DNA of 64,000 nt, from the NCBI RefSeq assembly GCF_057098645.1, contig NZ_CM169472.1; one strand, 5' to 3'. Positions 12,001-15,000 of this stretch are shown here, one piece after another. Made by a program: the position numbers. Position 1 is the first letter of the stretch. The number at the start of each line of letters is the position of its first letter.

Positions 12001-15000
12001 TTCAAAGGGGATTGAGCGCCAGATGACCGAAGGGGAATTAAAACGGCTTGCAGAACGGCAACTGACGAAATGGGCAAAGCATGTTAGTAACGGCCTGAGC
12101 GTTCCGCCAGTCCGGCGACAACTGGCGGCCCCCAAACGCCCGTCGGGGCCAACGCCAATTGAGTTGCTGAAACAGGAATATGAACGCCGGAAAGCGGCTG
12201 GTTTTGTATGAATTGTGAAGGTGATATTTCAGGAGGGCTTGTGGCAAGACCTTACACACAAGAAGAGCGGGAAAAGCTGAAGGCGGACATTGTAGCTTTC
12301 GTGCGTATGAGTGGGCGGGCAACGCTTCAGCAACTGGCGAATGAAACGGGCGTTGCCATGCGTACTGTTCGGTGTTTATGTGGAAGCCTTGCTGGCAGTG
12401 GAGATATCTGGCTATCTGGTTACGGGGTGTTTTCATCAGAGCAGGCGCGTAAAGACTGGCAAAACGCCCGCAAAAAACTTTCAAGGGCAAAGGCGAAGAA
12501 ACCGGTTGTAGTTGATCCGGACCTTATCTGGTCGTTACCAGACGGAGAAATACGCCGATACGACAGGCGTCAGAACATAATCTGTCGCGAGTGCCGGAAG
12601 AGTGAAGCTATGCAGCGTGTACTGGCTTTCTATCAGGGTAATTTTCATGAGACGGTACTGTGAGTGAAATTAGCTATCAGGCTTCAATTACCGCTGGCAT
12701 TCGCATCAAAGGAGAGGAGCATGGAAATAAAACCAGAAGATGAGTTAAGCAATATCGTTTTATTTCCGGTAAAAGAGGATGACCCACGTAATCAGGTTAA
12801 TTTTCTCTATGAGCCATCGGAAAGACCATATTGCCATCACGCCTCTGTCCGGGTTGACGAAAAAGAGCGTCAGGTCCGCTGTAAAATCTGCGGTGCAGTT
12901 GTGGAGCCATTTGACTGGATGCTCTCTGTGGCGAAAAGAGAAACCAGACTGGCAGATGATGTAAGGATCTTGCGCCAGGAGGAACGGGAAAGGCGGAGAA
13001 ATATAGAAAAGCTAATTCAGATTGAGCGTAACGTGAAAGCGCGGATACGCAGGGTGACAAAATCCAGAACTGAATAATTAATTTTAGCTCTGTTAAAAAT
13101 TTAATCCTTAACCGGAGGTATATCAATGTCAAACGCACAGAAAGTTATTAACGCTGAAAAATATAACGAGTGGGTGAAAAAGTTCTCAGAGCAGATTTTT
13201 AAAATTACTGGCGACGAGAATGCGGCAAAAAATGAATTAGAGCCGTGGACGCCTGAAGGTGTCGACCCAAATTATTGCTGGTGGGATGTTGATCCAGTTG
13301 ATGCTGCAAATGAAGCTATGAGTTATCACAACGATTAATGTCAGGAGGCCGCCCGAAAGGGCGGTAATGAAAAGTGACTGAATTAACCAAAGAGAAATTA
13401 ATCGAAGAAGCCAAATTAAAAATAGCGATTGCGAAATGCTACCCCAATTCAGGGATGGCACGGGTAGAGGGCGAGTTATTCAAAATTGCACTGGCATCGC
13501 TGGAAGCAGAACCAATAGGTGCTTTCCACATTGTAGAACAGCAAGTTGACGGAACAAGTTACTATATCAAGGATGGGGAATGGCCTATTGATACTGGGAT
13601 TATTGAAGTCTACGCCGCCTCACCGATGACGGTAGTGCTGAACGATGTATCTGGACCTCTTGCTCTTGCTTACAAAGAGCTTACACCTGCGATTATGCGC
13701 AACCATATCGCTGTATTCGAACGATACGGAATAACCCCAAACGATAGCATTACTACAATTCATGCGCTTCGAATTGCGCTGGATGGCATAGAGCGGAGCG
13801 ACGCCATGCTTCATGGACGTCAGCCATGCCATCAAATTACCGCCTCAATGGCAAAAGCTATTGCGCTTAAACTTGGTGCCGAACTGAATAACGAAGAAGC
13901 AGAGATTTTCGCGGATGGGTATAACACCGCCATGCTTCATGCCGAAAACTTTCGGGAAAATAAGAATTCGTCAACCAATAATTTTCGGATAACCTCGGAA
14001 ACGTCAACCAACTCTCCGGCAATCCCTGATGAGGTGTTGTCCGCAATCCTGAAGGTCGCCAGGGTTCGTGCAGATTTCGATGCTTCTGAAGGTGACAGGC
14101 GAGGTATCGGTGGTTGTCTGGATGAGGCCGAGCAAGAACTTATCGTTACCATTAACAAATACGCCAGTCAGATCGCAGTAGAAGCGATACAGGGGGCGCA
14201 CCAATGAGCCGGCCCGATGCATTTGCAGGCGTTGCTATAGCTATTGCTTTTCTAGTATATGTTATTTGTCGGTGGGGGTAAAAACGTTCGCCGGAATTCA
14301 CACCAAGGGAGGGAATATGTCGGATGATATTTCACTGGTAATGGAAGGCGCTCTGGCTGTTATTGCTGTTGTGGGTGTTTACTGCCTGGTTGTGTTTTTG
14401 ATGGATCGCCTGGGGAACTGAATTCATTCCGTATGGGAATTCCCATATCGGGCAAAAACGGTTTGCTGTAAAGCGAGAGTTAAGTAGAATTGCTGCGGGT
14501 GCTTGAGGCTGTCTGCCTCGGGCATGCCGCCGTAAGGCAGACAGAGAAAAGCCCCAGTTAACATTACGCGTCCGGCAAGACGCTTAACATTAATCTGAGG
14601 CCATATCTATGCGACACATAGAGATTAGCCTCTTACGGACCGAAAGGTCAAGGAGAAGCAGGCTATGAAGCAGCAAAAGGCGATGTTAATCGCTCTGATC
14701 GTCATCTGTTTAACCGTCATAGTGACAGCACTGGTAACGAGGAAAGACCTCTGCGAGGTGCGAATCCGAACCGGCCAGACGGAGGTCGCTGTCTTCACAG
14801 TCTACGAACCTGAGGAGTAAGAGACCAGGCGGGGGAGAAATCCCTCGCCACCTCTGATGTGTCAGGCATCCTCAACGCACCCGCACTTAACCCGCTTCGG
14901 CGGGTTTTTTGTTGTGCAGCGTAGTTGATTAGCTTTTTGTGTACTCCTTTGGTTGTGGTTCTTGAGGGGCCGTTTGGAGTAAATAGAATCATATTACTTA

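Follow-up and report, generated by a model that had tools for sequence, protein, structure and literature searches.

Three described systems stand closest to the locus analysed here: the hok/mok/sok (parB) locus of plasmid R1, hokW-mokW-sokW of the Stx2 phages 933W and Sp5 of E. coli O157:H7, and hokD (relF) in the relBEF operon of the cryptic prophage Qin of E. coli K-12. In R1, where 19 mok codons lie upstream of the hok start as they do here, translation of mok is required only as far as that start (PMC9841398). The hokW-sokW pair forms a toxin-antitoxin system of type I, dependent on RNase III and Hfq, with a toxic HokW (44% identical to R1 Hok), a SokW RNA that has been detected and is antitoxic, and an effect on lysis (PMC8621323). 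In K-12, transcription of hokD starts at the promoter of relBE (PMC3598666), and the hokD product is toxic on overexpression (bioRxiv 10.1101/2025.08.07.668861).

The window, a stretch of 64,000 nucleotides from contig NZ_CM169472.1 (GCF_057098645.1), very probably holds at 14462-14912 a hok/mok/sok module of the type I toxin-antitoxin class that is complete and belongs to the HokD/HokW lineage, and whose mechanism is predicted, from its sequence and by analogy, to be that of R1 and hokW-sokW. All elements of such a module are present, in order and conserved. The locus is of an already known kind, hok/mok/sok of the hokD type, and the module is an intact yet ordinary copy of the well-known hok/sok RNA-controlled toxin-antitoxin system. 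An earlier note on this DNA had described a type I toxin locus of the hok type, in which a leader ORF and a hairpin precede the toxin gene and a terminator follows it. Rfam, Pfam and alignment uphold this description, the leader ORF being mok-like and the mRNA hairpin conserved; the comparison it proposed with hok/sok and relBEF-hokD loci returned hokW/sokW of 933W, K-12 HokD and the Rfam model RF01794 (hok/sok). The latter matches 14497-14667 with 105.9 bits (gathering score 59; E = 2e-24) over model positions 1-157 of 157, so that the hok mRNA leader is conserved in sequence and structure from its 5' end to the hok ATG. Identical DNA carries a hokD annotation in RefSeq, a comparison with 5426 complete E. 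coli genomes gave a match to the locus in 4718, and hok/sok copies per E. coli genome number two at the median and ten at most. That a short ORF, some hairpins and a terminator lie together by chance, a reading for which nothing speaks apart from the small size of these elements, is refuted already by the Rfam and Pfam matches (profile and covariance-model E-values of 1e-22 to 1e-24) and by thousands of homologous loci, and we regard its probability as negligible.

The toxin gene and its prophage setting

The hok gene, of HokD type, occupies 14665..14820 on the plus strand (ATG at 14665, TAA at 14818-14820) behind a Shine-Dalgarno sequence GGAG at 14652-14655. The 51-aa Hok/Gef toxin announced in the earlier note was found both on reading the ORF and in the Pfam match (PF01848, HOK_GEF, E = 2.8e-22 over residues 6-47), and PHROG 251, 'MokW-like host killing', was also matched (E = 2.8e-32). 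The protein is identical to K-12 HokD at 50 of 51 positions (A46V) and to HokW at 47 of 51, ending in FTVYEPEE where HokW has FVDYESEK; R1 Hok is only distantly similar. RefSeq names the identical protein WP_000813256.1 HokD. Since the NCBIfam Hok models gave sub-threshold matches only (NF007279, Hok subfamily, 45.1 bits against a cut-off of 73; NF007290, HokA, 38.1 against 89), this naming evidently relies on other evidence. The codon for Tyr47 contains a UACG motif (14803..14806, plus strand), a candidate site for TadA A-to-I editing that would change Tyr to Cys; K-12 hokD editing (6%) and the motif have been described (PMC12214031). All 69 homologues share the sequence TACGAA, whereas the two bases just before it vary. 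Folding gave no support for a TadA-like local hairpin around the site (z = 0.2), and the motif stands by itself.

The host element is an IS-riddled, probably defective lambdoid prophage of a Shiga-toxin-type E. coli; insertions of IS629 and of the IS21 family are present, and the region up to Q is mostly missing. By tblastn, neither relB nor relE occurs anywhere in the window, and the sequence upstream of hok is the hok leader, not relE. The module thus stands alone, as the earlier note had it, without the co-transcription of the K-12 relBEF operon. The note's further statement that the context differs from that in K-12 is misleading: the locus has replication genes upstream and a rem homologue directly downstream, and so lies in the lambdoid prophage slot that hokD also occupies in Qin.

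Because the prophage is decayed, selection on the module may be relaxed. The locus might be an evolutionary relic, structurally intact and functionally silent (hok untranslated or Sok irrelevant), a passive passenger of a prophage in decay, comparable to the majority of chromosomal hok loci in K-12. The insertions and the loss of most of the region up to Q fit such a history, as does the published finding that the chromosomal hokA/B/C loci caused no post-segregational killing (bioRxiv 10.1101/2025.08.07.668861), and in K-12 four hok loci out of five are deemed inactivated (PMC12214031). However, the module shows no disrupted element, its Hok ORF is whole and encodes a protein nearly identical to one that is toxic when expressed, and the sister locus hokW-sokW is active. 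Together with the conserved helices and the persistence of the mok allele described below, this makes a silent relic unlikely.

The hok mRNA, its predicted folds and its 3' end

A putative hok mRNA promoter was read from the sequence at 14462..14490 on the plus strand (-35 TTTGCT/TTGCTG at 14462-14468, -10 TAGAAT at 14485-14490). It was not reported by a sigma-70 consensus scan, because its -35 is weak. The segment GTTAAGTAGAATTGCTGC is conserved across alleles and the sequence farther upstream diverges. Judging from position 1 of the Rfam model, the mRNA would start at G14497, and its 5' end would be formed by the tac element GGGUGCUUGAGG (14497..14508, plus strand), which was recognised in minimum-free-energy folds, in the 69 homologues and in the Rfam consensus. 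The first 32 nt of the mRNA give a predicted fold of -20.7 kcal/mol (z = -4.8), in which UGCUUGAGGC pairs with GCCUCGGGCA (14498..14526, plus strand). By analogy with the R1 model (PMC9841398), this would be the metastable 5' hairpin of the nascent transcript.

The earlier note had placed a hairpin with a 9-bp stem at about 14505..14545 and likened it to hok mRNA fold-back structures. The hairpin exists, with a stem of 10 bp in which CTGTCTGCCT (14509-14518) pairs with AGGCAGACAG (14535-14544), but folds and Rfam identify it as the stable stem-loop of the 5' tac domain (14509..14544, plus strand) and not as the fold-back inhibition element. Each of the two conformations predicted for the mRNA contains it, as does the Rfam consensus, and its stem is 98.4% paired in the homologues, with one compensatory pair (A-U in 61, G-C in 7). 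The true fold-back pairing joins tac to the fold-back inhibition (fbi) element CCUCAACGCACCC at 14870..14882 (plus strand), identified by its complementarity, the fold and the pair counts, just 5' of the terminator; fbi is also kept in K-12 hokD. As the earlier note stated for 14889..14910, an intrinsic terminator ends the hok mRNA; the terminator scan and the fold set it at 14889..14912 on the plus strand (stem 14889-14906, then a T-run).

Two alternative conformations are predicted for this mRNA. In the full-length fold (z = -6.8 against shuffles), tac pairs with fbi, closing the molecule from 5' to 3', and the Shine-Dalgarno sequence of mok is sequestered by ucb, the anti-Shine-Dalgarno box GCCCCAG at 14551..14557 (plus strand). 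In the fold of a 3'-truncated mRNA (14497-14868), ucb is instead captured by tac, and the mok Shine-Dalgarno region pairs with dcb, GCCUC at 14628..14632 (plus strand); this prediction agrees with the Rfam consensus structure, in which tac pairs with AAGCCCC. The names ucb and dcb are those of the R1 model (PMC9841398). The tac-fbi helix is 99.9% paired in the homologues and the ucb helix 99.5%. Taken over the 69 distinct homologous mRNAs, pairing is kept in 94% of cells, as against 37-44% with the partners slid, and compensatory pairs number 10 as against 2-6 in the slid controls. This speaks against a silent relic: all structural helices have been kept, with compensatory changes.

The 3' UTR contains a further hairpin at 14828..14849 on the plus strand (GGCGGGGGAG-AAAU-CCCUCGCC), present in the folds of both full-length and truncated mRNA and 99.5% paired in the homologues, with two compensatory pairs. 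By analogy with data on R1 (PMC9841398), it is likely the protective terminal stem-loop of the processed mRNA. The same region drew a weak Rfam match to isrK (14829-14910, 30.5 bits, E = 4e-4), which raises the question whether the main product is a trans-acting regulatory sRNA from the hok 3' UTR, similar to IsrK or other prophage Hfq-binding sRNAs, with the hok ORF secondary. The architecture of hairpin, spacer and terminator would suit an sRNA, and the prophages of the window contain several. Nevertheless, the score is well under the isrK gathering score of 50 and was judged a generic hairpin-plus-terminator resemblance; a true isrK match lies elsewhere in the window (5412-5488), and 14829-14910 is fully accounted for as the hok 3' UTR by the protective hairpin, fbi and the terminator. 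We therefore consider an sRNA as main product very improbable, and retain the hok/mok/sok module as the reading of this region.

The mok leader and the Sok antisense RNA

The leader ORF equivalent to mok (MRHIEISLLRTERSRRSRL) lies at 14609..14668 on the plus strand. Sequence and ORF reading agree with the earlier note that it has 19 codons and that its TGA (14666-14668) overlaps the hok ATG, as ATGA. Its own Shine-Dalgarno sequence, GAGG at 14597..14600 (plus strand), stands 8 nt 5' of the ATG, is nearly invariant in the homologues and, in the predicted folds, pairs with ucb as long as the mRNA is full-length and with dcb once it is truncated. The predicted reading frame passes over the hok Shine-Dalgarno sequence before it ends at 14668. 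In 933W, mokW has 70 codons and is in frame with hokW; compared with it, the allele here has lost 2 nt after ATGC and gained a T in AAAGG^TCAAGG, which leaves 19 codons. The 1-nt insertion also alters the -35 and spacer of the Sok promoter, and such a shift of the mok frame away from the majority allele is what a decaying, silent locus might show. However, among 82 related loci 15 have the short mok and the rest 70-codon in-frame or 67-68-codon out-of-frame versions, and the exact mok/Sok-promoter allele recurs without change in 15 further prophage contigs whose flanks differ; it is thus a persisting allele rather than a one-off lesion. Since R1 mok does not have to be translated beyond the hok start, 19 codons should suffice, and this natural allele fits the R1 mutational data on mok translation.

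The earlier note expected an antisense Sok-like RNA and had not identified one; such an RNA could be placed here by homology to sokW. The putative RNA, of about 69 nt, runs from 14615 to 14547 on the minus strand (14547..14615), its ends being transferred by alignment from the annotated sokW of phage 933W (positions 1594-1664 of that locus, L003). In the predicted structure, a single-stranded 5' tail of 13 nt, complementary to the mok start region, precedes a long hairpin, and the RNA ends in UUUU; the fold has -29.2 kcal/mol (z = -4.9) and the shape of sokW, and the hairpin is about 16 nt longer than the Rfam consensus. A putative promoter was read from the sequence at 14622..14651 on the minus strand, with -35 TTGACC (14651->14646), an 18-nt spacer, -10 TAATCT (14627->14622) and a start at about G14615. 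This -10 coincides in position with the site altered in the promoter-less sokW construct (primers YO-421/422; PMC8621323), and sokW has TTGCCT as -35 and a 17-nt spacer. A cis-encoded Sok with promoter and terminator, overlapping the mok start, is thereby predicted. The promoter/terminator scan of the locus found neither the promoter nor the terminator of Sok; it also missed the hok promoter. Neither promoter follows the consensus closely, and there are bulges in the hairpin of Sok. The two promoters were placed by homology instead and remain putative. Their failure to reach the simple sigma-70 consensus scan, with the poor -10 and 18-nt spacer of the Sok promoter, was counted against the reading as a working module.

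Alleles differ from one another mostly in the 5' tail of Sok, and the tail together with the mok start also differs between this locus and 933W. It is a tentative idea, to which we give well under even chances, that the segment of about 20 nt comprising the mok start and Sok 5' tail (14600-14622) is a hypervariable cassette that sets specificity, is exchanged by recombination among the hok/sok modules of prophages and keeps co-resident copies mutually orthogonal. The allele here would then combine a minimal 19-codon mok, coupled to hok purely by AUGA termination-reinitiation, with a remodelled Sok promoter. Sok tails do differ in all four pairs of loci from the same genome; this was rejected as evidence, since by a rough estimate from allele counts chance alone would make the tails differ in about 60% of such sets. 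The cluster of variation in the tail could serve the study of cross-talk among the several hok/sok copies of a genome.

Proposed mechanism and comparison with known hok loci

We hypothesize, from the R1 paradigm and hokW-sokW, that the elements are expressed and act in the source strain as follows. A weak promoter would give a hok mRNA of about 416 nt, whose 5' metastable hairpin would form during synthesis. In the finished mRNA, tac-fbi pairing of the two ends and ucb-Shine-Dalgarno pairing would render mok and hok untranslatable and the molecule closed to Sok, until slow 3' trimming removed fbi, tac captured ucb and the mok Shine-Dalgarno sequence and start became accessible. Ribosomes on the 19-codon mok would cross the hok Shine-Dalgarno sequence and terminate on the hok AUG (AUGA), making hok translation possible. 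As long as the locus is present, an unstable, constitutive Sok RNA would pair with the mok start region, blocking mok and hence hok and leading to decay by RNase III. A drop in Sok, through DNA loss, a transcription block or prophage induction, would allow Hok to be made and inserted into the inner membrane, and the cell would be killed or lysed. By analogy, the biological role may be prophage retention, help in lysis as for hokW-sokW, or phage exclusion.

The overall significance of the locus is small. Coordinates are now available for its unannotated mok and Sok elements, and wild E. coli prophages are seen to hold the full ancestral form of the hokD locus, of which K-12 has only a truncated, relBE-fused remnant. 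K-12 hokD shares the 3' UTR hairpin, fbi and the terminator with the locus here, and in both rem follows directly downstream. However, similarity begins only at about 14651, some 14 nt 5' of the ATG, and relBE replaces the promoter, tac, ucb, the mok start and Sok, so that the K-12 copy lacks promoter, tac, mok start and Sok. On our alignment and published work (PMC12214031), relBE-hokD of K-12 is a rearranged, truncated derivative. The hokW locus of 933W, also lambdoid, is about 91% identical in DNA over 439 nt and has tac, the stem-loop, ucb, the Shine-Dalgarno sequence, dcb, fbi and the Sok hairpin in common with this one; its terminator sequence differs and, unlike here, it lies near the right end of the phage genome. 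The plasmid-borne R1 locus, whose 70-codon mok overlaps hok out of frame, has the same regulatory elements in the same order as the prophage module described here.

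A hok/mok/sok module of the HokD/HokW lineage

A decayed lambdoid prophage carries here a hok/mok/sok module that belongs to the HokD/HokW lineage and is complete and conventional in its organisation. RefSeq already annotates it, Rfam, Pfam and PHROGs each recognise it, and experiments have characterised the sister locus, hokW/mokW/sokW of phage 933W/Sp5. Direct reading of the region and a full ORF listing recovered both the 51-codon hok ORF (MKQQKAMLIALIVICLTVIVTALVTRKDLCEVRIRTGQTEVAVFTVYEPEE; 14665..14820, + strand) and the mok leader ORF (14609..14668, +), whose 19 codons end in a TGA overlapping the hok ATG as ATGA, just as an earlier note on this DNA had described them. 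The hok ORF matches Pfam HOK_GEF (2.8e-22) and PHROG 251 'MokW-like host killing' (2.8e-32), and the 171 nt leading up to it (14497-14667, +) span the whole Rfam RF01794 (hok/sok) model with 105.9 bits, the gathering score being 59 and the modelled strand that of the hok mRNA leader; these matches bear out the note's identification of a hok-type toxin. The toxin is identical to K-12 HokD at 50 of 51 residues (A46V) and to HokW of phage 933W at 47 of 51. A 751-nt query around the locus was 100% identical in the E. coli O145:H28 genomes RM12761 and RM13516 and in three other complete genomes, and the CDS identical in these five is hokD in the RefSeq annotation. Matches to the locus occur in 4718 of 5426 complete E. 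coli genomes (median 2, up to 10 places per genome), and related loci are present in 110 phage and 593 plasmid records.

All 69 aligned homologues have TACGAA at the Tyr47 codon (14803-14808), although they differ at the two bases before it. TadA edits at the motif UACG, and 6% editing, which changes Tyr to Cys, was reported for K-12 hokD (PMC12214031). The hok UACG (14803-14806) matches this reported A-to-I site, and such editing of Tyr47 would give the toxin a second cysteine; a local hairpin around the motif was unsupported by folding.

Leader ORF and folding of the hok mRNA

The mokW gene of 933W has 70 codons and is in frame with hokW, whereas the window has lost 2 nt directly behind ATGC and gained a T in AAAGG^TCAAGG, changes that together shift mok to another frame, so that it stops at the hok ATG. 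Among 82 related loci scored for the form of mok, the 70-codon in-frame version was found in 58 and the exact 19-codon version of the window, with an identical -80..+6 segment, in 15; three loci had an out-of-frame mok of 67-68 codons (including the single-indel recombinants L024 and L061), two had other upstream ORF arrangements (L056, L059), and mok was missing in four, K-12-type or truncated contigs. It is thus not the Mok peptide that is conserved but an ORF from this ATG reaching the hok start. Since saturation mutagenesis of the plasmid paradigm R1 showed that mok must be translated as far as the hok SD and start but no further (PMC9841398), the 19-codon allele is expected to work.

The putative hok promoter (+) consists of a -35 element, TTTGCT/TTGCTG, a spacer of 16-17 nt and a -10 element, TAGAAT (14485-14490), upstream of G14497, which corresponds to the first position of the RF01794 model; the -10 block is kept among alleles but the sequence further upstream is not. 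The RNA from 14497 to 14912 folds at -174 kcal/mol (z = -6.8). In the full-length fold, GGGUGCUUGAGG at the 5' end forms a helix with CCUCAACGCACCC at 14870-14882 (tac-fbi, the mRNA 5' end with the 3' fold-back element), and GCCCCAG (14551-14557) pairs with the CUGAGGC that holds the mok SD, 14597-14600 (ucb-SD). Without the last 44 nt, the 5' end shifts to AAGCCCC (tac-ucb) and GCCUC at 14628-14632 becomes the partner of GAGGC (SD-dcb), a rearrangement described for R1 (PMC9841398), and this refolded, 3'-shortened mRNA agrees with the Rfam consensus structure. The first 32 nt alone are predicted to form a strong hairpin (-20.7 kcal/mol), which would be the expected metastable structure. The hairpin noticed earlier does exist, as the inverted repeat CTGTCTGCCT/AGGCAGACAG (14509-14518 and 14535-14544, +), but because it is present in both conformations its fold-back label must be dropped: the hairpin is the stable stem-loop nested in the tac domain. 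The terminator scan also located the intrinsic terminator claimed after hok, as a stem at 14889-14906 (+) with a T-run behind it.

Pairs of the full-length structure were counted in 69 aligned, distinct homologous mRNAs, close relatives selected for the tac motif, so that tac invariance is uninformative. Paired cells amounted to 94.1%, compared with 37-44% when partners were slid, and ten pairs showed compensatory changes. The 14509-14544 hairpin has one compensatory pair (A-U in 61 sequences, G-C in 7) and the 3' UTR hairpin at 14828-14849 has two. An isrK-like Rfam match on the hok 3' UTR (14829-14910, +) was rejected as sub-threshold (30.5 bits for a gathering score of 50), and is most simply a generic resemblance.

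Prophage context and the K-12 hokD locus

In the O145:H28 reference RM12761 the neighbourhood consists of lambdoid prophage genes, ordered as integrase, excisionase, exonuclease, dicB, dicA/cro-like regulators, replication genes, hokD, a DUF968 gene, RusA, antiterminator Q, and lysis and terminase genes, and the window prophage is a close variant with three differences. The first is IS629 (IS3 family; 15119-16434, -), with orfA (16054-16380, -), orfB (15167-16057, -) and an ALIL frameshift pseudoknot (15983-16099), which starts about 200 nt past the hok terminator. Secondly, the element takes the place of ~2.6 kb of RM12761 comprising most of the rem-like gene, DUF968, RusA and the larger part of Q; with this loss, late transcription of the window prophage is probably defective. 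The same IS629 is present in RM12761 at another place in the prophage. As the third difference, an insertion of ~2.6 kb in the dicA/cro immunity region (~7619-10259), absent from the RM12761 prophage and from K-12 Qin, encodes an IstA-like transposase (548 aa, 7741-9387) and an IstB-like ATPase (332 aa, 9161-10159) and is therefore an IS21-family element. Upstream of hok, separate segments of a 277-aa ORF (13374-14207, +) match several PHROGs of unknown function, and the RM12761 record has at the equivalent position only a C-terminal 'DUF551, partial' pseudogene; the ORF is possibly a fused or mosaic gene of the nin region. Directly before the hok promoter lies a 34-aa hydrophobic ORF (MSDDISLVMEGALAVIAVVGVYCLVVFLMDRLGN; 14318-14421, +), the hypothetical protein WP_001278459.1 in RefSeq, which has no match in NCBIfam or PHROG and may encode a small membrane protein.

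Other prophage RNAs were recognised in the window. A true isrK match (63.6 bits; 5412-5488, -) lies in the early-left region, adjoined by C4 antisense RNA (5300-5387) and DicF (5723-5774). STnc100 (17365-17554, +; 147.8 bits) and the anti-GcvB sRNA AgvB (17555-17616, -; 96.5 bits) stand back to back ~1 kb past IS629, and sar RNA is matched at 39146-39212 (-); the STnc100/AgvB/sar set is a typical EHEC-type prophage sRNA cluster.

The earlier note rightly stated that relBE is lacking, as neither relB nor relE occurs anywhere in the window, but was mistaken in placing the module in a different context. A rem-like start (15068-15151) lies directly 3' of hok, and K-12 hokD occupies the corresponding slot of the cryptic prophage Qin, in the order relB-relE-hokD-rem-ydfU-Q. 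The similarity of K-12 hokD to the window sets in only at ~14651, 14 nt short of the ATG, and extends across the 3' UTR, which makes the K-12 copy the rearranged, leaderless derivative. This agrees with the account in the passage of PMC12214031 that cites earlier work, according to which K-12 hok loci other than hokB were inactivated by IS elements or by rearrangements removing canonical components.

Sok antisense RNA and comparison with hokW-sokW

In the 933W GenBank record, sokW is annotated as an RNA of 71 nt on the minus strand that overlaps the start of mokW. Carrying its ends over through the alignment places at 14615->14547 (-) the Sok that had been expected but not identified. The predicted RNA covers both the mok SD and the mok ATG, and folds at -29.2 kcal/mol (z = -4.9) into the shape of sokW: a free 5' tail of 13 nt precedes a long hairpin, and UUUU closes the RNA. 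Its putative promoter is composed of TTGACC (-35; 14651-14646, -), an 18-nt spacer and TAATCT (-10; 14627-14622, -), the -10 position being exactly the site mutated by Takada et al. to silence sokW (primers YO-421/422).

Within the transcribed region, column entropy among the 69 homologues peaks at 14600-14622 (0.4-0.7 bits per column, vs ~0-0.1 in the hok CDS). This stretch holds the mok start together with the 5' tail and start-site region of Sok, and its variability fits diversified antisense specificity between co-resident copies; Sok tails differ in 4 of 4 same-genome locus pairs, where a rough estimate from allele counts gives ~60% by chance. The alleles look mosaic, the window sharing its 5' stem-loop type with one allele group and its mok/Sok-promoter type with a different one, which, together with the variable 14600-14622, suggests recombinational shuffling of antisense specificity.

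Lying in a decayed prophage, the locus might be a silent relic, which seems unlikely for a module this complete. In the sister system, HokW is toxic and SokW counteracts it, partly via RNase III and Hfq (Takada et al., PMC8621323); under mitomycin C, SokW falls and HokW rises, and the hokW-sokW locus approximately doubles Sp5 phage release (PMC8621323). Very probably, the locus described here is an intact, Sok-repressed module that would work as those of R1 and hokW-sokW do.
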